Shown in pieces: positions 521-14,246 of a DNA stretch of 14,246 nucleotides; positions within the stretch are counted from its first letter, which is position 1; the number at the start of each line of letters is the position of its first letter. Source of the stretch: a virus (Duplodnaviria; Heunggongvirae; Uroviricota; Caudoviricetes); the IMG/VR virus record IMGVR_UViG_2690316231_000009, positions 1 through 14,246 of that record. One strand, 5' to 3'. Under the pieces are notes generated by a model that saw only the letters and a list, made by a program, of their open reading frames with translations, had not been told where the DNA came from and ran no database searches. Both the position numbers and the translations under genes were made by a program.

Positions 521-616
521 AGAAATGAAAAAAGGCCACGCAGTTGCGCAGCCTGATAAACCCTGGTTAAAATCCACACGATAACAACACAACAATATCA
601 GTATCTCATGCTATTG

Positions 617-641
617 CCCGAACCCATTCGGGCATTTTTTA
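617..641 (+). terminator. Candidate rho-independent terminator, plus strand
   Basis: GCCCGAA (617-623) / TTCGGGC (628-634) 7-bp stem, 4-nt loop, followed by ATTTTTT (635-641). No plus-strand ORF lies upstream, so the terminated transcript is unknown. Confidence 0.45.
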
Positions 642-646
642 CCCAT

Positions 647-673
647 AAAAAATGCCCCTCCGGAGAGGGGCAT
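647..673 (-). terminator. Candidate rho-independent terminator, minus strand, downstream of the TerB-like gene and small hydrophobic ORF
   Basis: ATGCCCCTC (652-660) / GAGGGGCAT (665-673) 9-bp stem with CGGA loop; A6 at 647-652 gives a U6 tract immediately 3' of the hairpin on the minus-strand transcript. Confidence 0.55.
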
Positions 674-838
674 GTTTGCATGCACATTCTTTTTCTTGCA
701 TGGTGCCGGGTGCCTCCCGGTGAATTCAGTATCAGCACCTGAATCCGCGATTATCCCATATACCTGGTTGCTGATCGCCCCTCCGCACAGGGGGATTCAC
801 CATGCAGAAGTGTTTTTAATAAACAGCAAATAAAAAAA

Positions 839-1006
839 TCAAGCATTATGCAGGCTGTTTCTTTTTATCACCGGCCACAGCAATACCACAATGCCGCAGA
901 CCAGCACCCCATCCGCCAGCACCGACATGATTCTGCTGGTGAAATCCACCATCACCACCAGAAACAGCAGGAGTGCAGCCACAGCCAGGCGCAGTTTTAC
1001 CGTCAC
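839..1006 (-). CDS. Possible small hydrophobic (membrane) protein, about 55 aa, translationally coupled to the upstream TerB-like gene
   Basis: Not in the ORF track (GTG start). GTG at 1006-1004 overlaps the TGA stop (1005-1003) of the TerB-like ORF. Translation VTVKLRLAVAALLLFLVVMVDFTSRIMSVLADGVLVCGIVVLLWPVIKRNSLHNA has two hydrophobic stretches. Stop TGA at 841-839. No independent SD; may be spurious. Confidence 0.3.
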   Translation of the reverse strand: MTVKLRLAVAALLLFLVVMVDFTSRIMSVLADGVLVCGIVVLLWPVIKRNSLHNA

Positions 1007-1435
1007 AGGTGATTCTCCAGACGAAGACCCAGAACACCGGCAATCTCTTCCAGCACCTTGCGCTCTTCCGGCTCAATTTCGCCGTCTGCCTCCGCAATGG
1101 CCACCGCCACATCCAGCACATCTTCCGCTTCACGCGTATCGTGTTTCACATCCTCGATCTCACGTAACGCCGCACGACGACCAGTTTTAAAGTTCGTATC
1201 CAGCTGACCGATAATGGTTGCGCTAATCGCATTAATTTCCGAGGTAAACGCAGACAACGCAGGCTGATTACGTAAGACCTGTTCGATCTTCGCTTTCTCG
1301 GAAGCCTCACATTCACCATCTGCACAGGCCACCAGGTATGCGGCGTTAATCACCGCCTGTGCCAGATCGCGTTTTTCAAACTTTTTAATTTCCGTTGCCG
1401 CTCTGCGGGCTTTTTTTACCAAAAATACCAAACAT
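1003..1435 (-). CDS. TerB-like (tellurite-resistance TerB family) protein; reading frame interrupted by an apparent 1-nt frameshift in an A7 homopolymer (1411-1417)
   Basis: The long in-frame ORF (track 1003..1464) can only start at TTG 1464-1462. A well-placed ATG at 1435-1433, preceded by AAGGA 8 nt upstream, is in the adjacent frame and stops after 16 codons (MFGIFGKKSPQSGNGN). Removing one A from the A7 run joins it to the long frame, giving MFGIFGKK-ARRAATEIKKFEKRDLAQAV.... The protein has two ADGE-type motifs (LVACADGECEASEK and AIAEADGEIEPEER) typical of TerB-like domains. Confidence 0.6.
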
Positions 1436-1566
1436 CGTGACGTTCCTTTGGGTGGGTGAGCCAACGCCCGGGAGCGATCTGCCCACAGAGAAAGTCACAC
1501 TGACCACTCCGTAAGCTCCCCCCCGAAAGGCTCTGTGGTTGGTATGCGCCGGGCGTGGCGCAGATA

Positions 1567-1600
1567 CAAAAAAGGCCCGCAAAAGCGAGACGGGAAAATA
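1567..1600 (-). terminator. Weak candidate terminator after the tRNA cluster
   Basis: On the minus strand a short GC-rich hairpin (CCCG...CGGG) is followed by CCTTTTTTG (RC of 1566-1574). Stem is only about 4 bp, so support is weak. Confidence 0.25.
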
Positions 1601-1607
1601 AGTGTAG

Positions 1608-1681
1608 CGCGTTGTACTGGAGTCGAACCAGTGACCGATTGCTTAGAAGGCAATTGCTCTGTCCTGCTGAGCTAACAACGC
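1608..1681 (-). tRNA. tRNA-Arg (anticodon UCU); the 3' CCA is not encoded (genome gives CUA)
   Basis: Manual cloverleaf fold of RC(1608-1681): acceptor GCGTTGT/ACAACGC (7 perfect pairs), D-stem GCTC/GAGC, anticodon stem ATTGC/GCAAT with loop CTTCTAA (anticodon TCT), T-arm ACTGG-TTCGACT-CCAGT, discriminator G. Positions 1605-1607 read TAG, so the 3' tail would be CUA rather than CCA. Confidence 0.8.
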
Positions 1682-1694
1682 AGAATACCGATAA

Positions 1695-1771
1695 TGGACC
1701 ACCACCGGGGACTCGAACCTCGCGCAACCAGCTTCGAAGGCTGACGCTCTATCCCGATGAGCTAATGGCGG
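1695..1771 (-). tRNA. tRNA-Arg (anticodon UCG), with a slightly imperfect cloverleaf
   Basis: RC(1695-1771) = CCGCCATTAGCTCATCGGGATAGAGCGTCAGCCTTCGAAGCTGGTTGCGCGAGGTTCGAGTCCCCGGTGGTGGTCCA. D-stem GCTC/GAGC, anticodon loop CTTCGAA (anticodon TCG), T-loop TTCGAGT, encoded CCA. Acceptor stem has two G-U pairs, T-stem has one A-C mismatch and position 1 is C. Confidence 0.7.
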
Positions 1772-1778
1772 TATGTGA

Positions 1779-1854
1779 TGGTGGCCCTTGCTGGATTTGA
1801 ACCAGCGACCTGGCGATTATGAGTCGCTCGCTCTCACCACTGAGCTAAAGGGCC
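1779..1854 (-). tRNA. tRNA with CAU anticodon, most like tRNA-Ile2 (ileX/ileZ type); part of a phage ileZ-argN-argO-like cluster
   Basis: RC(1779-1854) = GGCCCTTTAGCTCAGTGGTGAGAGCGAGCGACTCATAATCGCCAGGTCGCTGGTTCAAATCCAGCAAGGGCCACCA. Perfect acceptor stem, anticodon loop CTCATAA, T-arm GCTGG-TTCAAAT-CCAGC, encoded CCA. Closely resembles E. coli tRNA-Ile2 as I recall it. Spacers to the neighbouring tRNAs are 7 and 13 nt. Confidence 0.85.
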
Positions 1855-1882
1855 GAGCCAAAAAATAATAATCAGATGAAAA

Positions 1883-2596
1883 TCAATAATCAAGCCCTTG
1901 CCTGGATACATATCTGTCTGGCGGGAAGCCATAATAGCGGTGAAATACAGAAATAAAGTAGGACCTGCTTGAATAACCGCATTTTTCTGCTATAGTCTGT
2001 CCATATCCATGCCGGGAACATAACATATTTACAGCAACACGCATCCGCTCTTCCAGCAACAAGCGACTGAACATGCCCCCTTCATTTTTCAGTTTTGTCT
2101 TTAACAAACTCTCACTCATATGCAACTGTAGAGCAATCGCACCAAGCGTCCAGCTTGCTGATATATCTGTCTGAATTATCGCCCTGACTTTGGCACTTAT
2201 GCTGGATAAACATCCACTTAAAAACAATGACATCCGTTCATCTGTTTCAAACAGAGACAGGCAGGCCATCATAAGAAACATATCCGTGGCCTCTCCGGAA
2301 AATCCCTGGCTGGTAATTAAAGCCGCAGCCAACGCAGGATTGTTGGGTTCCAGCAACAGGTAAAGCGGAATGTCAGTCAGACGAGTCCTCGTCAGCTTAT
2401 GCTGACTTTCCAGATATTGACTTACGACGGATTCGCTTATATCGACAATTTTAACTTTGCCATAATGCATAAGGAAAAGCTCCCTGATGCATTTGGTGGC
2501 CAGAACAACTGAGCCTGGCTTAAGTGACAACGTATCCTTTTCAAGAAAAATATTAATTGGGGAGCAAACCATGATAACTGAACAGACAACAGCCAT
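1883..2596 (-). CDS. AraC/XylS-family transcriptional regulator (prophage moron)
   Basis: 237-aa ORF; the C-terminal about 100 aa (SESLLKTKLKNEGGMFSRLLLEERMRVAVNMLCSRHGYGQTIAEKCGYSSRSYFISVFHRYYGFPP) is a typical AraC-type double HTH. AT-rich relative to flanking phage genes. ATG at 2596 has no clear SD; an in-frame ATG at 2572 is an alternative start. Confidence 0.8.
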   Translation of the reverse strand: MAVVCSVIMVCSPINIFLEKDTLSLKPGSVVLATKCIRELFLMHYGKVKIVDISESVVSQYLESQHKLTRTRLTDIPLYLLLEPNNPALAAALITSQGFSGEATDMFLMMACLSLFETDERMSLFLSGCLSSISAKVRAIIQTDISASWTLGAIALQLHMSESLLKTKLKNEGGMFSRLLLEERMRVAVNMLCSRHGYGQTIAEKCGYSSRSYFISVFHRYYGFPPDRYVSRQGLDY

Positions 2597-2717
2597 TATA
2601 ATTTTACTTTCATTAGCAATTGGTTAGCTCAATTATAGCCCCAAAAGGTAAATTATCATCAACACATAAGCAAAGGACTGACAGGTGTCGCCCCCCCACC
2701 AGCCGCCCATTCACCAC

Positions 2718-2744
2718 AAATAAAAAGCCTTCAGGACTGAAGGC
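2718..2744 (-). terminator. Rho-independent terminator of the small regulator gene
   Basis: GCCTTCA (2727-2733) / TGAAGGC (2738-2744) 7-bp stem with GGAC loop, overlapping the stop codon of the 2731..2928 ORF; followed on the minus strand by TTTTTATTT (RC of 2718-2726). Confidence 0.6.
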
Positions 2745-2928
2745 GTCTGTAACAACCGCACTGATAGTCTGCCAGACCCGCCATAACAAGCTGGGTCAGT
2801 ATTAACTGGCAGCGTTCGCGTGAAAGGTAAGTATTCTGCGCAATCTCCCCGACTGTCGCCGGTTCGGTAACGCTTAATTCATCAAACACAACTCTGGCGG
2901 TTTCTGTCATATCCTGCTGTTTCAGCAT
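2731..2928 (-). CDS. Small winged-helix regulator, PapI/FaeA-like (65 aa)
   Basis: ATG at 2928; own intrinsic terminator at the 3' end. MLKQQDMTETARVVFDELSVTEPATVGEIAQNTYLSRERCQLILTQLVMAGLADYQCGCYRRLQS has the size and helix pattern of PapI/FaeA-type fimbrial regulators. The family assignment is a structural guess from memory. Confidence 0.45.
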   Translation of the reverse strand: MLKQQDMTETARVVFDELSVTEPATVGEIAQNTYLSRERCQLILTQLVMAGLADYQCGCYRRLQS

Positions 2929-3053
2929 GTCTTTTTACCCTTTCCGGTTAACGTGACATACCAATAACTCTTGTCTAAAAAGCCAGCAAGATAAAAAGCC
3001 AGTATTCACGACCACCAGCGTGTTTACTGTACTGCACCAGGTTTACAGGTACA

Positions 3054-3137
3054 AAAAAACCGCTCAGCGGCGGGTTTAAGTTGTGTGGCGAAGTAACCAC
3101 TCTTAACAGCATATTTTATTTTTTACGATTGTAAACG
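3054..3137 (-). promoter_or_regulatory. Candidate promoter followed by a weak hairpin plus U7 terminator (possible Q-dependent late promoter / tR'-like element)
   Basis: Minus strand reads TTTACA (RC of 3132-3137), 16-nt spacer, TATGCT (RC of 3110-3115). About 40 nt downstream, CCGC-TGA-GCGG (RC of 3062-3072) is followed by TTTTTTT (RC of 3054-3060). The stem is only 4 bp, so the terminator call is weak. Confidence 0.3.
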
Positions 3138-3200
3138 GTTGATTATTCATCTCCAATAAAAATAATTGTGTGGGTATGCCCTTAACAATGGATAAGAAAC

Positions 3201-3647
3201 ATGAATAAAATGACTGTACTATTACTTAGCGCAACTATCATTTCAGGTTGTACTTCTTCCGTACCATTGATAAAGAAAACTCAATCAGGAAAACCTGAGG
3301 GGGTTTATCAAAATACGACAAAAGATAAAGTCAAAGATGCCCTTGTGAATTACTGCAATAGTAGAGGGTTGATAATTTACAACGCGGATAACAGCAGTGT
3401 TATATGTGGTAAAGAACTGGAAGGCGGCTCTGCTGTTTTTGGACAAATGTTAATCGGCAATGCCTATTCAACAACCCCGGTATCAAAAGTCAGATTTACT
3501 ATCGCTCAAGTTAATAACGATACAAAAGTGTGGGCCGATATGTGGATGGAAACTCAAATGGCAATGGGGCAAGTACAACAAATGTCTATAACAGACAACG
3601 CAAGCAAAAACACTATCCAACAACGTCTTGATGAATTAAAACCTTAA
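3201..3647 (+). CDS. Lipoprotein of unknown function (148 aa), AT-rich moron convergent with Q
   Basis: N-terminus MNKMTVLLLSATIISGCTSS has a positively charged n-region, hydrophobic core and lipobox ISGC. Markedly lower GC than surrounding phage genes. Opposite strand to the lytic operon. Confidence 0.7.
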   Translation: MNKMTVLLLSATIISGCTSSVPLIKKTQSGKPEGVYQNTTKDKVKDALVNYCNSRGLIIYNADNSSVICGKELEGGSAVFGQMLIGNAYSTTPVSKVRFTIAQVNNDTKVWADMWMETQMAMGQVQQMSITDNASKNTIQQRLDELKP

Positions 3648-3648
3648 A

Positions 3649-3686
3649 TAAATTAAATAAAATGGGGAGAATAAATCGACTCCCCA
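3649..3686 (-). terminator. Rho-independent terminator just downstream of Q, lying between the convergent Q and lipoprotein genes
   Basis: TGGGGAG (3663-3669) / CTCCCCA (3680-3686) 7-bp stem with 10-nt loop; on the minus strand it is followed by TTTTATTTAATTTA (RC of 3649-3662). Confidence 0.5.
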
Positions 3687-3727
3687 CACATTAAACTGAT
3701 TCAATTACCCCCTCAATAAGAGGTCTT

Positions 3728-4093
3728 CTAACGATCCATCTCTAGCTCAATTTCTAACATCATTAACATGCCATCAACTACACCTTCAGCTTTTTGCAAT
3801 AAACGCCCAACCCAGCAATCAGAACGCCCATGTTTACGGGCAAGCGCCATAAAAGTCATACCACCTACATAATAATCCACTAATAAATCGTGCAAATCGC
3901 TGTTGTTCTTTTTCAGGCGAGCCATGCATCCACAAATGATCATCGCGTCATCGTCACAACATTGCGGGCGGGATTTTACTTTTGAAGGGATTAGTCCTTT
4001 AAATCCTGCAGCAATAGACGACCAGGTGACATCCTCGTGATTATTTGCCACCCATGCCCCCCAACGTTCAAGAACCATTTGAATATCACGCAT
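3728..4093 (-). CDS. quuD: Late-gene antiterminator Q, QuuD-like
   Basis: Starting at ATG 4093-4091 (GGAG SD 7 nt upstream) the protein reads [75 protein letters not shown]..., which I recognise as very close to the DLP12 prophage antiterminator QuuD (YbcQ). The track start at 4108 is a TTG extension. Confidence 0.8.
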
Positions 4094-4110
4094 CAACTTT
4101 CTCCACAAAA

Positions 4111-5106
4111 TCAGGCCAGCACGCCAATTGCCAGCGCACGATCGATAAAACGAAATATCAGCTCCAGCTGGGAGCCATACTTCTCTTCAAATGCCACGGT
4201 ATCCGCATGCAGCTCGTCGTGATGCTTTCTGCACAAAGGCAACACAAAAAGGTCATGCGCTTTTGTTCCCATTCCACCCTGACCGTGACCTATCAGGTGG
4301 TGGGGATCATCAGCGGGCTTTCCACAACATGCACACGGCTGTGTCTTAACCCAGCGCGTGTACTTTTCATTAACCCAGCGGCGACGTTTTGGGCGTAACA
4401 TAAAAGACTCCGGCGACTCCGGATCCACTTTCAGCGCCAGCACCTTTTTCGCCTTATCCTGGATGATGCTGGTGGCAGGAACCGAAGGCACAAGGTCACT
4501 TTCCCGGGTAACAGACGGCACAACAGGCTTCGGTAATCTCAGTGCCTTACGGGCTGCACTTTCCGGTAAGGCATCCGCCAGATCATTACGAATCAGCCAC
4601 CAGCACAGTTCCGGCATTGTCACAACGTGACTGTCATCAAAACCGAGATCCCGACGCACAACAGACAACACCCAGCGGGCACAGTTATCCGTTGCCATTG
4701 ATTCCAGCCGTTCCGTGAACTGATCGCGCAGCTGGTTATCGCAGTGCCAGCACAGACGGATTGCACCCGGAGCGTGTCGCATTGTGGTCATGTTCTCGCT
4801 GTGCCAGTCGGAATGAGGCCACTGGCAGCCTTTTTCACGAAGTAACCAGCTTTCAAGACATTCCACGCCACCAGCACGACGGATCACTGCCTCATTGCGG
4901 AACACGGCCCGAACGGCAGGATCATCCGCCAGCGGTTGTGATGCCGCCGGAACGGCACCACTGGCGAAAGATGAATAACGCTCCGGCTCAGGCTCCAGCA
5001 GGACACGCCCCTGCATAAACAGGGGCATCAGCTCTGAACCTGGCCTGAACAATACGATCCCCATACGCGGGGCAATTTCAGGGGTCAGTAGTGCTCTCAC
5101 GGTCAC
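4111..5106 (-). CDS. DUF968-family protein (HNH-like Cys/His motif), lambdoid nin-region type
   Basis: 331-aa ORF; C-terminal [45 protein letters not shown] matches the DUF968 signature. GTG start at 5106 lies 1 nt after the KilA-N stop (coupled); exact start uncertain. Confidence 0.75.
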
Positions 5107-5107
5107 C

Positions 5108-5917
5108 TCAATGAACGGTATCGAGCAGCTTTAACAGCTCAGGGAATCGGGATTCGAAGAAATGCGGCTGCGTCTCGCGCGGATTTGCGGGACTGGTGAT
5201 GTTCTTGCCGAACATGCAGCCTTTCGCTGTCAGCGACCAGAATTTTTTGATGTTGTTAATCGCGGTACGACTGTATCGTTCGCGCTGCTCGACGATCCCC
5301 AGTTTCACCATCTGGTGATATGCCTGATTAGCCGTCAGGCGTATACCATACTGTTTCAGCAGTGCACTCAGTGACAGTGTCGGGCGACTTGAGCCATCGT
5401 GTGCATCAGCAGGAGCATCAATGGCATAGCGCGGTGCCAGATTCGGTAAGCCAACAGCCTCCTGGAGTTTCTGACAGGCACCAAGCACAGATGAGTTAGA
5501 CAGGTTTAACTCCCGACGCATAAAGTCCAGCAGAATCACACCAGCCTGCATCTTGTCAGCAGCCTGTCCGGATAATTTTTCCGGTGCGCTGGTTACCATG
5601 TCGAAAGTACGGATCACCTTAAGATGGAATGACGGGCTTATCCACATTGCATAGGCATACACCAGTTCTTTGCAGACATACGTTCCCCGTTCATTTCCCC
5701 CATGAATCACACTCACCGGGTCAACACCCAAATTCTGGGTGTTGGTCAATTCATGAACAAGTTCAACAGTTTGTTGGCTGGAAAGAAACTTTCCTGGCTC
5801 CTTGGTTCTGGCATTTGCACCAGATGCTACTGCTGCGCGATGTAGATCGTTCAGGCTGTAACGCCCATAAACATCACGACGAACTTCAATACCATCAATG
5901 ACCATCAGATTATTCAT
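5108..5917 (-). CDS. KilA-N domain protein (putative antirepressor-like)
   Basis: Best start is ATG 5917-5915 with AGGAG 9 nt upstream (MNNLMVIDGIEVRRDVYGRYSLNDLHRAA...); the track start at 5950 is an 11-codon extension. The N-terminal about 110 aa (...GGNERGTYVCKELVYAYAMWISPSFHLKVIRTFD) is a KilA-N domain. Confidence 0.75.
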   Translation of the reverse strand: MNNLMVIDGIEVRRDVYGRYSLNDLHRAAVASGANARTKEPGKFLSSQQTVELVHELTNTQNLGVDPVSVIHGGNERGTYVCKELVYAYAMWISPSFHLKVIRTFDMVTSAPEKLSGQAADKMQAGVILLDFMRRELNLSNSSVLGACQKLQEAVGLPNLAPRYAIDAPADAHDGSSRPTLSLSALLKQYGIRLTANQAYHQMVKLGIVEQRERYSRTAINNIKKFWSLTAKGCMFGKNITSPANPRETQPHFFESRFPELLKLLDTVH

Positions 5918-5936
5918 ACTTCGTTTCTCCTCTTGA

Positions 5937-6326
5937 TCAGGCGGCTGCACCCGCCGTTTTCTCGTACTTACTGATAGTGATCTCGACCTTCCCTTTCGGG
6001 ATAACCGGTCCCCACTCCACCAGCATTCTTTTCACCTGACTGTCGTCTTCCCACACACCCGCGTGGGTCAGGGCGTCAAACAGCGCCTTGTTATAGTTGT
6101 CCAGATCGCGGATCCTGTTATCCGGAGGAAACAACACGATCTCCACTGAAGCAGGTGCCGACGTTGGTTTCGGCAGACGACGTAACTGCTCAATGATGGC
6201 GGCACACGCCGCGCTCTGAAATTTTCGCCCCGCCTCGCTTATCAGGCTCTTACCAGCAAATGCCCCTTTGTTGGGGTGTCGCCAGTACGTGTTCACGCTG
6301 GGCGGAAAAGGCAGTATTAGCTTCAT
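5937..6326 (-). CDS. rusA: RusA-family Holliday junction resolvase
   Basis: 129 aa; MKLILPFPPSVNTYWRH...VEIVLFPPDNRIRDLDNYNKALFDALTHAGVWEDDSQV matches RusA hallmarks (PxxxN..YW N-terminus, acidic RDLDN catalytic region). ATGA overlap with the upstream methyltransferase stop. Confidence 0.85.
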   Translation of the reverse strand: MKLILPFPPSVNTYWRHPNKGAFAGKSLISEAGRKFQSAACAAIIEQLRRLPKPTSAPASVEIVLFPPDNRIRDLDNYNKALFDALTHAGVWEDDSQVKRMLVEWGPVIPKGKVEITISKYEKTAGAAA

Positions 6327-6976
6327 GCCACCATCTCCCTGACCAGTTTTTCCGCCTGCTGGCGAACCTGCGCCAGAAAGGCCTCACCACATGCCTCAAG
6401 TTCATCGCGCCCGATGTAGCTGATTGCCGGTCCCTTCCAGGTCTTGTCGAAAACAGCAATAGCACCAGCGAAGAAAGCGCCTGTCGGCACCTGCTTCTCA
6501 TCCTTCGGGATAAACCAGGCAGGCAGTTCAAAACCAATACGCCCGCGAATAAAAGTAATATGGTCCGCATCTTCCGGCCACCACACTTCGCTGGTGGCCG
6601 CTTTGATCAGGAAAACATAGCGCCCGCCCTTATCACGCATGGCACTGGCATGTTTCATGATGTAACGCATGCCGGTGATGTATTGCCCCTCATGCTGACT
6701 GGCGCGGCTGTATGGGGGATTACCAAAGGCAGCACCTTTAAGCTCCGCAAGACGTTCTGACCAGTCATGCGCCAGCGCGTTGTCTTCCGCCGTGTAATAC
6801 GCGGCACATTTGGCGTTATCACCGTCAGTGAACAGATCCAGAACAAACGGACCAAACAAGGTGTTAATTCCCCAGAAAATGTTGTCCGGCGTGCGCCACT
6901 GATCGCCCACTTCCTTCAGTTCATGGGCTGGTTTGTTCCGCAGTTCTACCAGCGCCTGGCAATATTTATTACTCAT
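6323..6976 (-). CDS. Phage N6-adenine DNA methyltransferase (orphan, Dam-like)
   Basis: Start ATG 6976-6974 with GGGGG SD 4 nt upstream (MSNKYCQALVELRNK...); the track start at 7021 is an extension. Contains the amino-MTase motif IV GNPPY (AAFGNPPYSRAS). No adjacent restriction endonuclease gene. Confidence 0.8.
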   Translation of the reverse strand: MSNKYCQALVELRNKPAHELKEVGDQWRTPDNIFWGINTLFGPFVLDLFTDGDNAKCAAYYTAEDNALAHDWSERLAELKGAAFGNPPYSRASQHEGQYITGMRYIMKHASAMRDKGGRYVFLIKAATSEVWWPEDADHITFIRGRIGFELPAWFIPKDEKQVPTGAFFAGAIAVFDKTWKGPAISYIGRDELEACGEAFLAQVRQQAEKLVREMVA

Positions 6977-7070
6977 TAAGCCCCCACGTAAAAAGCATCC
7001 GCAATGTCTCCGGAAGTACACCCCGGATGGGCTTCAATGAATTTCTGAACTTCATTCAAAAGACTCATGA

Positions 7071-8066
7071 TCACCCCCTGAATCCTTCCGGGATCTGGCT
7101 GTAGTCCACGTTGTCGTAACTGGCTTTGAAGTACGGGTCCTCGCGTCTGGCTGCAGATACCGCAGGAACTTCCCAGGATTCTTCGAAATGACGATCCGGA
7201 CCAAAGAACGTCGACGCCTGCTTCACGAACTGGGTACCGGTATTTCCAGAGACACGCACCCAGGCGGCATAGCGTTTCACACCGTCGAGCATGGTTTCGG
7301 GTGTCACACCTTCCCTGATTCGGGCTTTCCAGGCTTTAAAAGCGGCGGATTTTGAATTACCACCAGCACGTTTGGGATATTCCTGCCAGGCCTGTTCAAA
7401 TTCCGGTGAATATTCCTGTCTGGCAGAACGCGCTGGTGCAGACGCGTCAGCGGATGCGCCAATAGTGTTTTTAGTCTCCGTTGTAATCTCTGTAGTAATC
7501 TCTGTAGTAATCTCTGTATTTGTATCAACATTCGGCGTATCCCCTGTTCCGTTATGACGTCGGGGGGTGTTCCGTTTTAACGTAATAGCTGTATCGCTGA
7601 TTGCATTATTGCTGTTACTTTCTGGCGAAACAGAAGAAGGTGTGGTGATGGCCGCAATTGCCTGTGGGTTGATCCCGACAAACAAAATATTGCTGCATTT
7701 CACCCCATCGAGCATTTCCACCGTGCGTAAATCCAGAGTAATAAACCCTGCATCGCGCAGACGCTTCAGCGCATCTGCGGTTTCCCTTTTCCCGAAACCA
7801 AACTGCTCAGCAAACGCCTGGTAGCTTCTTTGCAGTTTGTCGCCCTGAAAACGCTTGCGATATCCCAGCAACGCTCCGGTGTGCTCATCCCTGACCTCTG
7901 TCGGGCGGTACCAGTAAACGATCTCTGAAAGCAGAGCGATAGCCGTCGCATCCGGACGCCCACTGGGTAGTCGAATATATTTCCACCAGGTCGCAGGTGT
8001 AACATTGCCGGAAATATTAATTTGACCAATAGCCATAACTTCCGGTGTGGGGGCGTAACGGCTCAT
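7071..8066 (-). CDS. Putative phage replication initiator / replisome organizer (O-like) with internal tandem repeats
   Basis: 331-aa ORF; ATG 8066 with AAGGAGG SD; ATGA overlap with the upstream ORF. It sits where lambdoid phages place the replication initiator and contains 12-bp tandem repeats encoding TEITTEITTEITTE. Function is inferred from position and the embedded repeats, not from a recognised motif. Confidence 0.5.
   Translation of the reverse strand: MSRYAPTPEVMAIGQINISGNVTPATWWKYIRLPSGRPDATAIALLSEIVYWYRPTEVRDEHTGALLGYRKRFQGDKLQRSYQAFAEQFGFGKRETADALKRLRDAGFITLDLRTVEMLDGVKCSNILFVGINPQAIAAITTPSSVSPESNSNNAISDTAITLKRNTPRRHNGTGDTPNVDTNTEITTEITTEITTETKNTIGASADASAPARSARQEYSPEFEQAWQEYPKRAGGNSKSAAFKAWKARIREGVTPETMLDGVKRYAAWVRVSGNTGTQFVKQASTFFGPDRHFEESWEVPAVSAARREDPYFKASYDNVDYSQIPEGFRG
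7471..7518. repeat. Tandem 12-bp direct repeats (three exact or near-exact copies plus one degenerate), candidate origin iterons inside the replication gene
   Basis: TAATCTCTGTAG at 7483-7494 and 7495-7506, TAATCTCTGTAT at 7507-7518, preceded by the degenerate copy TAGTCTCCGTTG at 7471-7482. In-frame within the 7071..8066 CDS. Confidence 0.75.
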
Positions 8067-8362
8067 ACAACCTCCTTCCGCAGCATGAGAATTGTGTAGC
8101 CACGCGCAGGTTGTAGTCTGGCTTTTGCATCAATAGTAAGCGTTGCAATTTTTCGGATATGAAGATAACCAGCTCTTTCCAGTGCCAGGGTTTCCCTGAA
8201 TATCGCTTGCTTAGAACAACAGCAGAAATCAGCAAGCACCTGATGATCAATAACTCTCTCGCCTTCACCGTCTGAAGAACCCGACATCAAAACACGCAAC
8301 ATAATCAGGCGCTGAATCGGGTTATCGAAAGCACATCCGCACACAAACTGAAAACAGTTCAC
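8063..8362 (-). CDS. Hypothetical protein (99 aa), possibly HTH-containing
   Basis: GTG start at 8362-8360 overlaps the stop of the upstream ORF (GTGA); its stop overlaps the start of the replication gene (ATGA). No family recognised. Confidence 0.45.
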   Translation of the reverse strand: MNCFQFVCGCAFDNPIQRLIMLRVLMSGSSDGEGERVIDHQVLADFCCCSKQAIFRETLALERAGYLHIRKIATLTIDAKARLQPARGYTILMLRKEVV

Positions 8363-8583
8363 GCCACACCTCCCAGACGCTTAAACATTTTTCCGGAGCA
8401 AAAGGCTATAAGCGGCATACTGACGCGGTAATTACGGCCCAGCGGTTCACAAACCACCTTCTGACATTCACGGTCAACCAGGCTAACACGTAGAACATGC
8501 CCAGCAGGCGTGGTGTACCACTGACCCGGACGAGGACAACGGAAAGTATGATTGGTAAACCGTTTGAAAATATTCCGGATCAT
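8359..8583 (-). CDS. Hypothetical protein (74 aa)
   Basis: ATG 8583-8581 overlaps the TGA stop of the Rha ORF (ATGA). No recognisable motif. Confidence 0.4.
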   Translation of the reverse strand: MIRNIFKRFTNHTFRCPRPGQWYTTPAGHVLRVSLVDRECQKVVCEPLGRNYRVSMPLIAFCSGKMFKRLGGVA

Positions 8584-9740
8584 TTGCGCCCCCTTACCTC
8601 TGAAGGGTTCAGCGACAAATTTATGAGACTGGCCAGCGCCGAAGCATCATTAATATAGTCATATAAGCTAACAGCCAGCGGAGATTCGGCTTTTGCCAAC
8701 ATAGGATAAAGCTGCTGCAGCCAGACCTGATGAATTGATGAAATGTAGGAACAGAGAACGCTGGCGTTATGTGCAACGTCGCTCGGTACAGCGGGCTTTG
8801 AAAGCTGTTTCTCCATCTGGTTAAAGGCATTTATGTATGCCTCTTTGAACCGGGCAGCACGTTTACCCGTGAAACCCATAGCAAGAAACGCAAAACCGTC
8901 TCGTGTGATTTGATAGCAAGGGAGCTTGCGTGTACCACCGTTCGGTTGATTTACCGAAATCGATGTCTCCGCAAAATTGCGGGCACAAAACTCTGGGGAA
9001 CAATCCAGAGTGCGGATCTTTTTCAGCACATCGTCGTGACGCTTGGAGAAGAAGTTGGCAACAGCCAAAGAAGTGGTAACGGCCTGGCCGTTGTCAATGG
9101 TGATTTCAGGTTGAGTGAGGGCTGGGATCGTAGCCATGATGGCAGCCTCCGTTGACAGTGAAAAACTTCCACCACCGGAAACGCCAATTTCACTGGTGGT
9201 GAACTGGACGGGGTTGGCGTAACCGGCGTCAACGGAGACCGGCGCACCTTTCGGTGCCCCCGCCCAGCCCACCATAATCTGGATGTGAGCAAATGCGGAC
9301 GATAAAAAAGACGCTGGCGCGTCATACATCGCCGTTGACAATTTCAGGACGCCAATCCCGGCACCCGCTTTATAAGGTGCCTGAGCAGTGTAACGTCCCG
9401 GAATTGCAGAATCAATATGCTGGTGGTCCTTCACACTCAACAAAATCACGCCTGAATTTCCACAAAGGACTAAAGCACTCATGCGGGTAGTCTTTGCGAA
9501 GATAGATAACGCGCTGTGTTTCTGGCTCCCAACGAATAACATGGACATAAAGCCCTCTTCCGTCACGAAACCAGCGGTTAAGTTCCTGCACAACTCGCCC
9601 CCCACAGTCAGGTAAAGTTCTCTGTGGTTACTTACAGCCAGGTGATTTGGTAATCTGCATTCATGCCGTAACAACAGGTGTTCAGCGACGCTGACCACCA
9701 GCTGTTGCGACAAACGGTTATTTGCCGTTAAACTATTCAT
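8580..9740 (-). CDS. Rha-family phage regulatory protein with an about 200-aa N-terminal extension of unknown function; strong internal start at 9137
   Basis: 386-aa uninterrupted ORF. Residues about 220-310 (LAVANFFSKRHDDVLKKIRTLDCSPEFCARNFAETSISVNQPNGGTRKLPCYQITRDGFAFLAMGFTGKRAARFKEAYINAFNQME) form a Phage_pRha domain. ATG 9740 overlaps the CII-like stop (ATGA). An internal ATG at 9137 with GGAGG 8 nt upstream would give a 185-aa stand-alone Rha protein (MATIPALTQPEITIDNGQAV...). Confidence 0.6.
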   Translation of the reverse strand: MNSLTANNRLSQQLVVSVAEHLLLRHECRLPNHLAVSNHRELYLTVGGELCRNLTAGFVTEEGFMSMLFVGSQKHSALSIFAKTTRMSALVLCGNSGVILLSVKDHQHIDSAIPGRYTAQAPYKAGAGIGVLKLSTAMYDAPASFLSSAFAHIQIMVGWAGAPKGAPVSVDAGYANPVQFTTSEIGVSGGGSFSLSTEAAIMATIPALTQPEITIDNGQAVTTSLAVANFFSKRHDDVLKKIRTLDCSPEFCARNFAETSISVNQPNGGTRKLPCYQITRDGFAFLAMGFTGKRAARFKEAYINAFNQMEKQLSKPAVPSDVAHNASVLCSYISSIHQVWLQQLYPMLAKAESPLAVSLYDYINDASALASLINLSLNPSEVRGRK

Positions 9741-10294
9741 GCGTTAGTTTCTCCACAACCAGAAGCAATCGACGCCACGACGCCCGGAGCTGCACACTCG
9801 CGGGCGTTACTATTTTCTGGAGCGCAGAAGATTTTGTAGACCAGTGCTGCATGCTCCTGGAGCTTCGAAATTGAAAGATACAGTTCGTCGTTAATTGCTG
9901 TCTTCTCATGCGGTTCCACTACACCGTCTTCGATTGCTGAACGAATCTGTTTTGAATAACTGCCGATCTGTTCAATGACTTCCAGTAAACGCTGGTTAAT
10001 ATCGGCATTGTCCACATCCTCGACGTCAGGAAGAGACACAAAGACGCCATTTGCAGACTGCGCCACAGCGTCAGCAATGAAGTGAGTGCCACCAGCACGT
10101 TGTAAAATCATTGCCCATCCCAGCGGGAAAATCTGATCGCCATCGGCACGAAGGCGGTTAAATAATGCGTTCTCTGTTACATCCAGCCACTCAGCAGCTT
10201 CAGCGTAACCCTCCGGCAACGCCGCGATAGTTTTTCTGACAGCTTTCACGTACCACTCAGGCTGTTTTTCCACTTTCCAGTGATGATTACCCAC
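9737..10294 (-). CDS. Putative CII-like lysogeny regulator (phage 186 CII / CP76-like), 185 aa
   Basis: GTG start at 10294 with AGGAGG 6 nt upstream; immediately downstream of cro, where lambdoid phages place cII. Assignment rests on position and loose resemblance only. Confidence 0.4.
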   Translation of the reverse strand: MGNHHWKVEKQPEWYVKAVRKTIAALPEGYAEAAEWLDVTENALFNRLRADGDQIFPLGWAMILQRAGGTHFIADAVAQSANGVFVSLPDVEDVDNADINQRLLEVIEQIGSYSKQIRSAIEDGVVEPHEKTAINDELYLSISKLQEHAALVYKIFCAPENSNARECAAPGVVASIASGCGETNA

Positions 10295-10547
10295 GGCTTA
10301 CCTCCTGTTCCTGTGGTTTAAACCCATTCTGGTTTTGGCTAGATTGAAAACGTGCCGGATAAAGAATCTGCATTTCGCTGATTTCACCCTTAAAAAAATT
10401 GGCCAGACGTTCTGCAAGATCGATAGATGGAATTTGTTCCAGTCTTTCAATACGACTCAGCGTCGCTGGATTGACCTGAACGCCAGCAGCAACATGCTGC
10501 AAAGTAAATCCGTGCGCCTTACGCACATTCCGTAATGGTGATTGCAT
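10287..10547 (-). CDS. Cro-like HTH (XRE-family) regulator
   Basis: 86 aa; MQSPLRNVRKAHGFTLQHVAAGVQVNPATLSRIERLEQIPSIDLAERLANFF is a canonical XRE HTH. Divergent from the repressor gene across an operator-rich spacer; GGAGG SD upstream of ATG 10547. Confidence 0.75.
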   Translation of the reverse strand: MQSPLRNVRKAHGFTLQHVAAGVQVNPATLSRIERLEQIPSIDLAERLANFFKGEISEMQILYPARFQSSQNQNGFKPQEQEVSRG

Positions 10548-10644
10548 ATGACCTCCACATATTGCGTGATGAGCATATTATTTCACGCAAATATTTTGCG
10601 CAAGTTGATTTGCTTAACGCGCAATAAAGAAATGTAATAAACGC
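10548..10644. promoter_or_regulatory. Immunity-region divergent promoter/operator spacer (OR-like) with repeated TTGCG...CGCAA palindromic elements
   Basis: TTGCGTGA (10562-10569) / TCACGCAA (10583-10590) and TTGCGC (10596-10601) / GCGCAA (10619-10624) form two 29-bp inverted repeats of identical geometry. TTGCGCAA (10596-10603) is an 8-bp palindrome. TTGCTTAACGCGCAA (10610-10624) resembles the 15-mers found downstream of cI. Confidence 0.6.
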
Positions 10645-11337
10645 ATGAACATAGGAAACCGAGTCAGACAACTTCGCCAGGCGAAGAACATGAAAATCGC
10701 CGATCTCGCTGAAGCAATAGGAGTGGATGCGGCGAATATCTCACGCCTGGAAACAGGTAAGCAGAAACAATTCACTGAACAAGCCCTGAGTAATATTGCC
10801 AGGAGCTTAGGTGTTGATATTGCTGATCTCTTTACCTCAGACGTCAAAAGTAATACTGTATGTAAAAACAGTATTAGTGAGGATGTTGCGCAGGTGAAGG
10901 ATGTATTCCGTATTGAAATGCTGGATGTCAGTGCCAGTGCGGGAAATGGCCTTATCCAGGGCGGTGATGTCATTGATGTGATTCATGCCATTGAATACAG
11001 AACTGATAATGCTGTATCGATGTTTGGCGGACGGCCAGCCAATCACATTAAAGTTATCAACGTTCGTGGGGACAGTATGTGTCCAACCATTGAGCCAGGA
11101 GATCTCATCTTCGTTGATGTCAGTATCAATCAGTTTGATGGAGATGGTATCTATGTATTTGGTTTTGATGATAAAATTTATGTCAAACGACTGCAAATGA
11201 TACCTGACAAACTACTGGTGATTTCTGATAACCAGATTTACCGTGAATGGGGAATTACCAGCGAAAATGAACACCGGTTTATGGTCTTTGGAAAGGTCTT
11301 AATCAGCCAGTCACAAACCCTTAAGCGACACAATTAA
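10645..11337 (+). CDS. CI-type prophage repressor (HTH_XRE N-domain plus S24 LexA-like autopeptidase C-domain)
   Basis: 230 aa; N-terminal HTH (VRQLRQAKNMKIADLAEAIGVDAANISRLETGK); Ala-Gly cleavage site (SASAGNG); catalytic Ser in GDSMCPTI and Lys in YVKRL. No SD precedes the ATG at 10645. Confidence 0.9.
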   Translation: MNIGNRVRQLRQAKNMKIADLAEAIGVDAANISRLETGKQKQFTEQALSNIARSLGVDIADLFTSDVKSNTVCKNSISEDVAQVKDVFRIEMLDVSASAGNGLIQGGDVIDVIHAIEYRTDNAVSMFGGRPANHIKVINVRGDSMCPTIEPGDLIFVDVSINQFDGDGIYVFGFDDKIYVKRLQMIPDKLLVISDNQIYREWGITSENEHRFMVFGKVLISQSQTLKRHN

Positions 11338-11357
11338 CCCTTACCTCCTCATCAATT

Positions 11358-11382
11358 AGCCACCCAAAGGTGGCTTTTCATT
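11358..11382 (+). terminator. Rho-independent terminator downstream of the repressor gene
   Basis: AGCCACC (11358-11364) / GGTGGCT (11369-11375) stem with CAAA loop, followed by TTTTCATT. Confidence 0.6.
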
Positions 11383-11392
11383 ACCCTTTAAA

Positions 11393-11446
11393 TTGCATAT
11401 CTCGCAATAAAAACACTTGCATAATGCGCAACTTCATTTTATCTTT
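11393..11446 (+). promoter_or_regulatory. Candidate OL/pL region: two 15-bp operator-like elements overlapping a promoter-like sequence
   Basis: TTGCATATCTCGCAA (11393-11407) and TTGCATAATGCGCAA (11417-11431) share the TTGC-N7-GCAA layout seen in the cI-cro spacer. TTGCAT (11418-11423) followed 17 nt later by TATCTT (11441-11446) is promoter-like. Confidence 0.35.
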
Positions 11447-11876
11447 CTTTCCAGACAAACAAACAAGGTACTAACAAAATTTGGTTGTAACACGACGTAT
11501 GGCACATGCGTCGTTAGCGGTCTGGGGACGTTAAAGGGGACAATCCACTCCTTGCTCGAGCAAACAAACCAGGTAGCCGGAATGTGCAAGTCAATGATGA
11601 TGCTGATAAGACGCCTAACCAGCGTGGCGGTTCGGTTTGACACCTGGGAAGAGACCAGGGTGCAACGATGAGGGCATTTATGGAACCGCGACAAAGTGTG
11701 GTGCCGTAACTGGCTAAGTGCTCTCAGCGTTGTGGTGAATGCGCAGGCTGATGCGCGAAAGACATTGCAGCTATTGCGGAAAAGAGCTGTTCGGCGGGGC
11801 AATTAAACGCCCGTGAGAGTCTGAAATAACCGCAAGCCGGAGATCAGCACCGGTCACCACAACAGCCACTGCTTTG

Positions 11877-11923
11877 GCGGTACCAGTTTGTACACTTGCT
11901 TCCGGCTGGTACCGCTCTTTTTA
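11877..11923 (+). terminator. Candidate intrinsic terminator/attenuator in the early-left leader; its T-tract resembles a boxA element
   Basis: GCGGTACCAG (11877-11886) / CTGGTACCGC (11906-11915) 10-bp stem with 19-nt loop, followed by TCTTTTTACAAAA. CGCTCTTTTTA (11913-11923) resembles boxA (lambda CGCTCTTA; rrn GCTCTTTAACAA). Confidence 0.35.
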
Positions 11924-12059
11924 CAAAACAGAGAAGAGCATCACCGGCCGACGGGCTCATAACCCAATCCATCCGGGCGGCTGCCACCGCAGGTGTTCTT
12001 CTCTGTTTTGTGGAGAAACCAACCGACCTTGCAGGGTCGATATGATGAGGAGCAGCAAA

Positions 12060-12422
12060 ATGGCTAGCGAACGCAGTACTGATGTGCAGGCATTTATCGG
12101 GGAGCTGGACGGCGGCGTATTTGAAACCAAAATCGGCGCTGTTCTCAGTGAAGTCGCTTCCGGTGTGATGAATACGAAAACCAAAGGTAAGGTCTCGCTC
12201 AACCTGGAAATCGAACCATTTGATGAGAACCGTGTGAAAATCAAACACAAACTCTCATATGTTCGCCCGACTAACCGCGGGAAAATTTCCGAAGAAGACA
12301 CCACCGAAACGCCGATGTATGTCAATCGCGGTGGTCGCCTGACTATTCTGCAGGAAGACCAGGGACAATTACTGACTCTTGCCGGTGAACCTGACGGAAA
12401 ACTCCGCGCAGCAGGTCATTAA
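12060..12422 (+). CDS. Hypothetical early-left protein, YfdP-like (120 aa)
   Basis: ATG 12060 with GAGGAG 7 nt upstream (MASERSTDVQAFIGELDGGVFETKIGAVL...). The track ORF 11874..12422 adds an implausible upstream extension. Resemblance to CPS-53 YfdP is from memory. Confidence 0.5.
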   Translation: MASERSTDVQAFIGELDGGVFETKIGAVLSEVASGVMNTKTKGKVSLNLEIEPFDENRVKIKHKLSYVRPTNRGKISEEDTTETPMYVNRGGRLTILQEDQGQLLTLAGEPDGKLRAAGH

Positions 12423-12487
12423 TATCGTTTTTAATAAACTGATTATTTCTCTCATCACTGAATATTTTTATATAGTGAGGACTTATT

Positions 12488-13312
12488 ATGTCTCAGAACT
12501 TAGACGCAACCGCAATTAATCAAATCCATGCCCTTATTTCTGCTCAGGGTGTTAATGAAATTATCAGTAAGATTGGTGCCGATGCTGTGGCATTGCCTGA
12601 GAATTTCCGCATTCATGATCTGGAAAAATTTAATTTAAATCGTTTCCGTTTCCGTGGTGCGCTTTCCACTGCCAGCATCGATGACTTTACTCGTTATTCT
12701 AAAGATCTTGCAGATGAAGGCACCCGCTGCTTTATCGATGCCGATAATATGCGTGCCGTCAGTGTGCTTAACCTGGGTACTATTGATGAGCCAGGTCACG
12801 CAGATAACACTGCCACTCTCAAACTGAAAAAGACAGCACCGTTCTCTGCTCTGTTGTCTGTTAATGGCGAGCGTCATTCCCAGAAGTCACTGGCAGAATG
12901 GATTGAAGACTGGGCCGACTACCTTGTGGGCTTTGATGCTAATGGTGACGCTATTCAGGCAACAAAAGCGGCTGCGGCTGTCCGTAAAATCACGATTGAA
13001 GCAAACCAGACCGCTGATTTTGAAGATAATGACTTCAGCGGCAAACGCTCCCTGATGGAGTCTGTCGAAGCGAAAACCAAAGATATTATGCCAGTGGCAT
13101 TTGAATTTAAATGCGTTCCGTTTGAAGGTCTGAAAGAACGTCCATTTAAATTACGCCTCAGCATTATCACTGGCGATCGTCCTGTACTGGTTCTGCGCAT
13201 TATTCAGCTGGAGGCGGTGCAGGAAGAAATGGCTAACGAATTTCGTGATCTGCTTGTTGAGAAATTCAAAGACAGCAAAGTAGAAACCTTTATTGGTACT
13301 TTCACCGCCTGA
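12488..13312 (+). CDS. DUF2303-family protein, YfdQ-like (274 aa)
   Basis: ATG 12488 with GTGAGG 7 nt upstream. Sequence [40 protein letters not shown]...[11 protein letters not shown] matches my recollection of E. coli CPS-53 YfdQ in length and sequence. Confidence 0.65.
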
Positions 13313-13324
13313 TTTCATTACTGC

Positions 13325-13346
13325 AAATGCCCCTGCGGGGGCATTT
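13325..13346 (+). terminator. Hairpin between the YfdQ-like and YfdR-like genes (weak terminator or attenuator)
   Basis: AAATGCCCC (13325-13333) / GGGGCATTT (13338-13346) 9-bp stem with TGCG loop; the downstream T-tract is short. Confidence 0.3.
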
Positions 13347-13439
13347 ATGGAAACGTAATTGACTCAATAATCGCCGGATGGTGAGGGCTTCCTTTTACCA
13401 GAATTCAGCGTGGTGCAGCACATATACGCGGAGAACAAA

Positions 13440-13964
13440 ATGTCATTTATTAAAACTTTTTCCGGGAAGCATTTTTATTATGACAGGATAAATAAAGACG
13501 ACATCGTGATTAACGATATCGCGGTTTCCCTTTCAAATATCTGTCGCTTTGCCGGTCATCTTTCACACTTCTACAGTGTCGCCCAACATGCGGTGCTTTG
13601 CAGCCAGCTGGTGCCGCAGGAATTTGCTTTTGAAGCGTTAATGCATGATGCAACAGAAGCGTATTGCCAGGACATCCCCACGCCGCTGAAACGTCTTCTT
13701 CCTGACTATAAACGGATGGAAGAAAAAATAGACGCCGTAATCCGTGAGAAATACGGGTTACCCACGGTTATGAGCACGCCTGTGAAATATGCCGATCTCA
13801 TCATGCTGGCAACCGAACGCCGCGATCTCGGGCTTGATGATGGCTCTTTCTGGCCTGTACTGGAAGGTATCCCGGCAACAGAGATGTTCAAAGTTATTCC
13901 ACTGTCGCCAGGCCATGCCTATGGGATGTTTATGGAACGCTTTAAAGAGTTAACTGAGTCGTAA
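13440..13964 (+). CDS. HD-domain phosphohydrolase, YfdR-like (5'-deoxynucleotidase family), 174 aa
   Basis: ATG 13440 with GGAG 6 nt upstream (MSFIKTFSGKHFYYDRINKDDIVINDIAVSLSNICRFAGHLSHFYSVAQHAVL...LMHDATEAY...). The H...HD metal-binding motifs are present. The track start at 13410 is an extension. Confidence 0.7.
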   Translation: MSFIKTFSGKHFYYDRINKDDIVINDIAVSLSNICRFAGHLSHFYSVAQHAVLCSQLVPQEFAFEALMHDATEAYCQDIPTPLKRLLPDYKRMEEKIDAVIREKYGLPTVMSTPVKYADLIMLATERRDLGLDDGSFWPVLEGIPATEMFKVIPLSPGHAYGMFMERFKELTES

Positions 13965-14072
13965 AAATCAGCACGTACGAATTCAAACTCTGCCATAAAA
14001 GAACATATAAGTAATTTATTAACATATAGATATAGGTTATATTACAAATTGAAAAATTATTGGAGAGCAACA

Positions 14073-14114
14073 ATGAATCAAAATCCATTCTCATTCTATG
14101 ACTTTCTTGGATAT
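14073..14114 (+). pseudogene. 5' remnant (14 codons) of a gene truncated by the IS2 insertion
   Basis: ATG 14073 with GGAGAG 5 nt upstream; reads MNQNPFSFYDFLGY and then runs directly into the IS2 terminal inverted repeat, whose first three bases (TAG, 14115-14117) supply the stop. Confidence 0.4.
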
Positions 14115-14246
14115 TAGACTGGCCCCCTGAATCTCCAGACAACCAATATCACTTATTTAAGTGATAGTCTTAATACTAGTTTTTAGACTAGTCATTGGAG
14201 AACAGATGATTGATGTCTTAGGGCCGGAGAAACGCAGACGGCGTAC
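14115..14246 (+). mobile_element. IS2 left end (terminal inverted repeat and 5' region), extending beyond the window
   Basis: 14115 onward reads TAGACTGGCCCCCTGAATCTCCAGACAACCAATATCACTT...AGTTTTTAGACTAGTCATTGGAGAACAGATGATTGATGTCTTAGGGCCGGAGAAACGCAGACGGCGTAC, near-identical to the canonical IS2 left end and start of orfA as I recall it. Confidence 0.85.
14206..14246 (+). CDS. insC: IS2 transposase OrfA (InsC), first 13 codons; continues beyond the window
   Basis: ATG 14206 with GGAGAA SD; translation MIDVLGPEKRRRR matches the N-terminus of IS2 InsC. Confidence 0.85.
   Translation, partial: MIDVLGPEKRRRR

Follow-up and report, generated by a model that had tools for sequence, protein, structure and literature searches.

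The gene trio yfdP-yfdQ-yfdR, at positions 12060-13964 of a 14,246-nucleotide (nt) stretch of virus DNA (IMG/VR record IMGVR_UViG_2690316231_000009, positions 1 to 14,246; hereafter the window), has its closest described counterpart in the yfdP-yfdQ-yfdR-yfdS-yfdT array of CPS-53 (KpLE1) in Escherichia coli K-12. There, yfdQRST was isolated as a multicopy suppressor of hda-185, and the initiation phenotype needs yfdQ and yfdR plus either yfdS or yfdT, yfdP being dispensable (Noguchi & Katayama 2016, PMC4776307). Multicopy yfdQRS or yfdQRT inhibits initiation at oriC in vivo, extracts oversupplied with YfdQRST inhibit initiation in vitro, and purified YfdR binds domain I of DnaA in a Phe46-dependent manner and moderately inhibits DiaA-DnaA and DnaB-DnaA binding (PMC4776307). 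The K-12 yfdPQ genes have been treated as an operon, and the regulator SrsR binds the spacer between yfdO and yfdP (PMC9181523). According to a survey from 2025, yfdP, yfdQ and yfdR occur frequently in the early-left operons of lambdoid phages, whether or not a Rec module is present (PMC12315714). Early operons of lambdoid phages may also be headed by RNA elements, as in phage HK022, where put is an RNA of ~70 nt with two adjacent stems that occurs in two copies, putL just past PL and putR ~270 nt from PR (PMC9378689).

The window derives from an E. coli lambdoid prophage, with genes for a Q antiterminator, RusA, a DNA methylase, a Rha/antirepressor protein, a CII-like protein and a cro-like protein on its minus strand. 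The yfdP-yfdQ-yfdR region is best explained as the section nearest the promoter in the early-left operon, under repressor control, of a prophage of the SfV/mEp460/ST64B type. Orthologous genes, gene order and a hairpin-bounded yfdPQ followed by yfdR are all as in CPS-53. However, the window keeps an intact immunity region and a structured leader, whereas the yfdO/yfdP spacer of CPS-53 is rearranged and carries SrsR boxes. The SrsR-bound spacer is specific to K-12, and no SrsR box (TCAGATTTTGC) occurs in the leader of the window with up to 2 mismatches. The window also lacks yfdS and yfdT, and carries instead a membrane-protein gene disrupted by IS2. The phages mEp460, cdtI, SfV, ST64B and Stx2c share the layout of the window (repressor, long leader, yfdP, yfdQ, yfdR), with a leader of 88-99% nucleotide identity (96% over its last ~185 nt in SfV). 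Unlike the window, they continue with yfdS, ea22, DUF551, an exonuclease, xis and int, and the recombination junction in the window falls within the last codons of yfdR.

Taking these comparisons together with the linkage and RNA data below, we propose a model in which a leader RNA, a yfdPQ pair and yfdR form an operon that acts on DNA replication, and we think, with considerable reserve, that this model is probably correct. The layout runs from a folded leader of ~125 nt to a fixed yfdP-yfdQ pair closed by a hairpin and then to yfdR. Cleavage of the repressor would allow transcription from the operator region through the leader, and the three proteins would be expressed. YfdR would bind DnaA domain I around Phe46, compete with DiaA and DnaB and so dampen initiation at the host oriC, and may retain a weak deoxynucleoside monophosphate (dNMP) phosphatase site kept intact by selection. 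YfdP and YfdQ would form a complex and take part in DNA replication or recombination, without belonging to a known class of enzymes.

Gene identity and the yfdPQ pair

The three genes and the hairpin that follows yfdQ are as follows.

12060-12422, + strand: yfdP, 120 amino acids (aa), GAGGAG 5 nt before the ATG
12488-13312, + strand: yfdQ (DUF2303), 274 aa, GTGAGGA upstream
13321-13350, + strand: hairpin directly after the yfdQ stop codon, with a G+C-rich core of 9 base pairs (bp) and a short AUUUAU tail, RNAfold -16.5 kcal/mol
13440-13964, + strand: yfdR, HD-domain phosphohydrolase, 174 aa, GGAGAA upstream, orthologue of the DnaA-binding K-12 YfdR

Each gene has a Shine-Dalgarno sequence 5-7 nt from its ATG, and the yfdR reading frame is also open from a GTG at 13410. 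RefSeq has yfdP, yfdQ and yfdR at identical coordinates in a strain that matches the stretch with 100% DNA identity, and of 5426 complete E. coli genomes 1122 contain at least 80% of the stretch. Identity to the K-12 MG1655 proteins is 99.2%, 98.9% and 94.3%, respectively, and functional phages (mEp460, cdtI and the Stx2c phages) show ~97% identity across the leader and the three genes. YfdP, YfdQ and YfdR match PHROG 204, 210 and 318 with E=1e-49, 2e-120 and 3e-107. An original prediction, made from the sequence alone, had described three genes with good ribosome-binding sites and assigned them to the YfdP, DUF2303 and YfdR families; the open reading frames (ORFs), their Shine-Dalgarno sequences and the profile searches all bear this out. 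The gene set is thus already known, widespread and correctly annotated, and as a copy, 94-99% identical, of annotated and partly studied K-12 genes the module is nothing new in itself.

YfdQ belongs to DUF2303 (PF10065) over its full length, with a match at E=1.2e-92 and 310 bits (curated cut-off 26.6) that covers residues 7-272 of 274. The profile matches 1818 clusters at 50% identity, nearly all of them single-domain proteins of ~270 aa. YfdP is placed in its family by the match to PHROG 204 and by its position directly upstream of a DUF2303 gene; all listed homologues carry the newer PF27127, a family that our local copy of Pfam does not contain. Its conserved segment is EEDTTETPMYVNRGG. 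A beta-clamp-binding motif, QxxL[FL], was considered for the conserved C-terminus of YfdP and rejected, since the motif is present in Enterobacterales and in Marinobacter/Hahella and is lost in the Vibrio, Photobacterium and Kistimonas homologues. DUF2303 and YfdP (PHROG 210 and 204) are among the largest phage protein families that have no assigned function.

The linkage of these genes was followed in 84 loci, from four phages and 80 GTDB species genomes, in which identity to YfdQ ranges from 99% to 41%. A YfdP homologue stands directly upstream of yfdQ in every one of the 83 loci that have upstream DNA, those of Vibrio, Pseudomonas and Xylella phages included. Of 81 loci, 52 have a YfdR-like gene no more than 200 nt after yfdQ and 6 have one at a greater distance (~2 kb downstream of yfdPQ in the Pseudomonas phage); the other 23, among them all non-Enterobacterales genome loci and the Vibrio phage, lack it. 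Given the invariable adjacency and the optional yfdR, yfdPQ is an obligate two-gene unit to which yfdR is a frequent addition. Upstream on the same strand, the commonest neighbour is a repressor with S24 and helix-turn-helix (HTH) domains (18 of 36 diverse loci). An Rv2179c-like 3'-5' exonuclease, SSB, a YqaJ exonuclease, an integrase and PrtN also recur as neighbours; RecT is seen too, and in Xylella phage Usme the pair adjoins a recombinase, an exonuclease and SSB. The pair is therefore usually the first cassette of an early-left operon and is set among genes of DNA metabolism.

The hairpin after yfdQ recurs at this position in nearly all of 25 diverse loci, regardless of the presence of yfdR; it carries compensatory changes there and delimits the yfdPQ cassette on the 3' side. 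Its U tract is short, which leaves two options, a weak terminator or a 3' stabiliser. This boundary fits the view of a yfdPQ transcription unit in K-12. Recognising an obligate pair with RNA boundaries, separable from yfdR, also defines the unit to be cloned and tested in experiments. A second small hairpin, CGCC-N4-GGCG, is found ~55 nt past the first in many loci. In Stx2a-type phages such as P13374 (L085:3591-3937), two small annotated ORFs together make up the YfdP homologue, one with the N-terminal helix and the other with the conserved C-terminal part, which match the half-length PHROGs 33467 and 17027.

Structural data exist for a homologue of YfdQ. PDB entry 9o7m, entitled 'YfdQ Protein', holds 36 identical chains of 274 aa (an example chain is lettered C); it is matched by the family profile at E=3e-83 and by the YfdQ of the window at E=6e-45 with ~40% identity. 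Its sequence is 98.8% identical to a protein of Xanthomonas phage MET23-P3, so that it originates from a phage of the Xanthomonas/Xylella type, and no paper mentioning the entry was found in the literature searched. The 36 chains point to a large homo-oligomer or filament. An AlphaFold2 model of YfdQ (pLDDT 78.5) gave no full-length fold match in fold libraries that do not include 9o7m. The description of the two partners of YfdR as uncharacterised, given from the sequence, needs little correction: in K-12, yfdQ shows genetic phenotypes, and the structure of a homologue has been deposited.

Early-left position and the structured leader RNA

The position of the genes is defined by the features that lie upstream of them.

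10645-11337, + strand: cI-like repressor with HTH and S24 peptidase domains (Pfam Peptidase_S24 E=6e-19, and HTH families)
11358-11375, + strand: terminator-like hairpin ending the repressor transcript (consensus scan: 7-bp stem, 5 G-C pairs, T run)
11393-11407 and 11417-11431, no strand assigned: two operator-like palindromes, TTGC-N7-GCAA (regular-expression search), the putative oL/pL region

The repressor is co-oriented with yfdP-yfdQ-yfdR and lies upstream of them, and a third copy of TTGC-N7-GCAA is found by the same search at 10610, between cro and cI. The orientation of the repressor, the terminator-like hairpin and the oL- and oR-like operator sites together place yfdP-yfdQ-yfdR in the early-left operon, as had been proposed from the sequence. 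The consensus scan listed no promoter hexamers near 11393-11431, so the start site of this operon is inferred. The repressor, terminator and operators are arranged as expected for a lambdoid pL operon, but an N gene and nut site do not come first. Between the operators and yfdP there are ~630 nt that contain no convincing gene and no RefSeq annotation; no ORF in 11376-12059 matches a family (two ORFs were compared with Pfam), and no N-like antiterminator protein is encoded between the operators and yfdP.

What this interval does contain, just upstream of yfdP, is a structured RNA.

11918-12041, + strand: structured leader RNA, ~125 nt
11918-11942 paired with 11992-12016, + strand: P1, closing stem of 23 bp (alignment fold)
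11944-11950 paired with 11970-11976, + strand: P2 (alignment fold)
11953-11955 paired with 11963-11965, + strand: P3 (alignment fold)
11977-11980 paired with 11987-11990, + strand: P4 (alignment fold)
12025-12030 paired with 12035-12041, + strand: P5 hairpin, its end 8 nt upstream of the yfdP Shine-Dalgarno sequence

Across genera whose YfdQ proteins share only 57-69% identity, nucleotide identity in the last ~170 nt before yfdP amounts to 80-93%. The structure comes from 27 sequences aligned with MAFFT, one stem having been added by eye. In this alignment 95.2% of the cells are paired, and 17 of the 43 pairs have changed on both sides; none of 500 shuffles did as well, and sliding the structure by 1-3 columns leaves 4-7 pairs. 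Many conserved G.U pairs assign the fold to the sense strand of yfdP (+ strand). One of the inner hairpins has the conserved loop CUCAUAACCCAAUCC, and the other varies in length. The yfdP Shine-Dalgarno sequence lies outside all of the leader helices and is hence not sequestered by them. A covariance model of the leader finds matches upstream of yfdP in further genera, and the core of the RNA is also present in the leader of the ban operon in the P1-like phages RCS47 (34 bits, L168:3131-3209) and P7 (27 bits, L169:1102-1267).

Several other identities for this element were considered and rejected. It is not an N-terminal coding extension of yfdP, as in 26 of 34 loci the yfdP frame does not stay open through the motif, and the changes in the stems are compensatory. 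Against the families of Rfam 15, nothing in 11376-12070 scored better than E=1.4 (14.6 bits). A site at 11876 resembling the RfaH ops element is an imperfect match and, in the alignment inspected by eye, is not conserved in other loci. The most pertinent comparison is with HK022 put, since both are structured RNAs in the leader of a lambdoid early operon that has no N-like gene before its first gene. Yet the leader forms a three-way junction with a 23-bp closing stem and is present in a single copy ~470-500 nt from the operators, an architecture that differs from that of put, and its covariance model has no match in the early region of HK022.

Viral contigs scanned for the conserved loop gave at least 120 loci. 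Among the matches listed, 104 have enough downstream DNA to identify the next gene, and 74 of these have yfdP 40-140 nt downstream. The first gene is a different one in the other 30, mostly rdgC (PF04381, E=1e-115) or yfdR, so that part of these 30 contigs hold a phage RdgC cassette directly behind the same leader RNA, in the slot of yfdPQ. The presence of other first genes indicates that the leader is a module that can head different early operons and is not specific to yfdP.

Candidate functions of the leader are put-like processive antitermination, a site for RNase III processing, and an element of RNA stability or translation. The N leader of phage lambda carries an RNase III processing site. 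It is conceivable, and we advance it tentatively as a possibility that falls short of probable, that two things hold jointly: that the leader represents an undescribed class of cis-acting RNA, which heads N-less lambdoid early-left operons and P1-like ban operons and gates a swappable cassette (yfdPQ, rdgC or yfdR) by put-like antitermination or by an RNase III or translation switch, and that YfdP and YfdQ form a large oligomeric machine of DNA metabolism. As a well-defined candidate regulatory RNA of phages, the leader may explain how early-left transcription is controlled or extended in lambdoid phages that lack N, and it is the part of the locus most worth following up.

The ~630-nt leader region as a whole is a mosaic of shared non-coding blocks. 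At 11714-11765 (+ strand) a block of ~40-50 nt (GTGCTCTCAGCGTTGTGGTGAATGCGCAGGCTGATGCGCG), which holds a small hairpin GCGCA-GGCUGA-UGCGC, is 89-97% identical to unannotated DNA of very different phages, among them Klebsiella phages of 46-49 kb and of ~158-160 kb, Escherichia phages of ~73 kb, HK620, HK629 and Cronobacter phage ES2. The parts at 11479-11735 and 11716-11864 (+ strand) are 77-96% identical to unannotated DNA elsewhere: in P7 between tRNA-Ile and ban, similarly in P1 and SJ46, and also in phiV10. The RCS47 match of these leader parts adjoins tRNA-Thr and overlaps an antisense 'plp' annotation.

YfdR and the possible functions of the operon

YfdR is an HD-domain phosphohydrolase, as the original prediction had proposed. 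It contains the H...HD...D motif of metal-dependent enzymes of this type and passes the Pfam YfbR-like threshold narrowly (27.4 bits, cut-off 25.9). Residues H50, H69, D70, E73 and D78 align with the HD...E...D core of YfbR and show at least 97% conservation across 60 distinct homologues, and the active site has therefore been maintained. YfbR (PDB 2paq) and Atu1052 (PDB 2gz4) are likewise small HD-domain phosphohydrolases with which YfdR has the H...HD...E...D core in common. Atu1052 is the nearest solved relative (E=1e-11) and is closer to YfdR than YfbR is (E=0.31), yet it is annotated as a hypothetical protein. DnaA binding has been reported for YfdR only, and not for YfbR or Atu1052. YfdR is orthologous to K-12 b2361, with 94.3% identity over 175 aligned positions and differences confined to the last ~10 residues.

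In view of this orthology and 94% identity, the protein most likely acts like K-12 YfdR, and interference with initiation of host replication through DnaA appears to be its best-supported role, a lead that the original prediction had missed, with the caveat that yfdS and yfdT, one of which is co-required in K-12, are missing here. DnaA binding and inhibition of initiation come from work on K-12, and by analogy they may also occur in a prophage that has neither yfdS nor yfdT. A joint action of YfdP and YfdQ in DNA metabolism is suggested by the need for YfdQ in the K-12 replication phenotype, by the DNA-metabolism genes in the neighbourhood, by rdgC as a positional alternative and by the 36 chains of 9o7m.

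A number of points weigh against this model of an operon directed at replication. The K-12 phenotype is seen on overexpression only, deletion of yfdQRST has no replication phenotype, and the authors allow for an artefact (PMC4776307). Pull-downs detected no strong binding of YfdQ to YfdR or to DnaA (PMC4776307). yfdS and yfdT are absent both from the window and from an intact relative (L001), though present in mEp460, and the C-terminal tail of YfdR differs from that of the K-12 protein. Since YfdR is absent from 23 of 81 yfdPQ loci, YfdPQ must have some function independent of YfdR. Finally, the structural comparisons gave no clue to an activity of YfdP or YfdQ.

Three other explanations have to be weighed against this model. 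The one that survives best, though we consider it unlikely, takes YfdR to be mainly a 5'-deoxynucleotidase that reshapes the dNMP and deoxynucleoside triphosphate pools during induction or superinfection, with YfdP and YfdQ as unrelated passengers. The strong purifying selection on the HD metal and catalytic residues would agree with such a role, as would the alignment to YfbR across the HD...E...D core and the family name given by RefSeq and PHROG, which is 5'-deoxynucleotidase or dNMP phosphatase. However, YfdR is no YfbR equivalog, scoring 22.2 bits in NCBIfam NF003009 against a cut-off of 122. The 5'-deoxynucleotidase label goes back to work on K-12, which, as cited by Noguchi & Katayama 2016 (PMC4776307), showed a nucleotide affinity of YfdR much lower than that of YfbR and left its function 'elusive', and deletion of yfdR left the yield of cytidine monophosphate (CMP) unchanged in an engineered strain (PMC10870394). 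The preferred substrate may thus be other than a canonical dNMP. Of the 5'-deoxynucleotidase label first given to this gene, the HD family stands and the specific activity is doubtful; a role in altering nucleotide pools, which had been suggested along with it, is not favoured by the existing evidence.

A second explanation, which strikes us as improbable, is that YfdP-YfdQ has an unrecognised function in homologous recombination or at DNA ends, for instance as an oligomer that anneals or coats DNA. Neither mEp460 nor ST64B has an annotated known recombinase in its early-left operon, yfdPQ lies among recombination genes in other phages, rdgC is an alternative to it in position, and the 36 YfdQ chains of the PDB entry would suit an oligomer of this kind. 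Yet the pair also co-occurs with complete Rec modules, in Stx phages of the P13374/ArgO145 type, in the Vibrio phage and in Xylella phage Usme, and the authors of the 2025 survey doubt a recombinase role because the genes occur both with and without such a module (PMC12315714). Moreover, neither protein shows fold similarity to Rad52, RecT, Erf or RdgC, and YfdQ and RdgC have no sequence-profile homology, such a relationship being rejected at an hhalign probability of 0.14%.

In the third explanation the module is a cassette for anti-defence or superinfection exclusion, functions that early-left accessory genes often have and that the original prediction had suggested. This seems very improbable, for beyond the operon position and a next gene that in intact relatives encodes a membrane protein faintly resembling SieB, nothing speaks for it: PADLOC, which covers defence and not anti-defence proteins, matches none of the three proteins, virulent-looking Xanthomonas and Xylella podophages also carry the pair, which is set in DNA-metabolism blocks, and the SieB-like gene is a separate one that IS2 has destroyed here.

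Flanking DNA and other features of the window

Downstream of yfdR the window ends in a disrupted gene.

14073-14114, + strand: first 14 codons of the next operon gene, which encodes a 288-aa membrane protein in intact relatives (alignment with strain E2)
~14115-14246, + strand: left end of an IS2 element (IS3 family), running past the window edge; multi-copy, with IS2 transposase in thousands of E. coli records

IS2 cuts the membrane-protein gene after these 14 codons. The intact 288-aa protein has a weak match to SieB (E=0.0013) that falls under the Pfam threshold, and in close relatives its gene is followed by a PrtN-type excisionase-like gene. In a related strain, an IS1414 insertion is found in the neighbourhood of the membrane-protein gene after yfdR.

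Further RNA features occur elsewhere in the window. A C4 antisense RNA (9192-9279, - strand, 81 bits) and an isrK RNA (9304-9380, - strand, 62 bits), both above their Rfam thresholds, lie inside the ORF of a 386-aa Rha family regulator (8580-9740, - strand), in the part that matches Pfam 'Ash'. The N-terminal half of the Rha ORF may therefore be an RNA immunity region of the c4/isrK type rather than protein-coding sequence.

In the leader of the late region, an AgvB anti-GcvB small RNA (579-640, + strand, 96 bits) adjoins STnc100 (641-831, - strand, 143 bits). Three tRNA genes follow at 1003-1854 (- strand), Arg-tct, Arg-tcg and one with a CAT anticodon that is called Met by ARAGORN and Ile by RefSeq. 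They adjoin genes of the TerB family and of DUF3927, and the combination of tRNA genes with TerB is as in the ban operon of P7.

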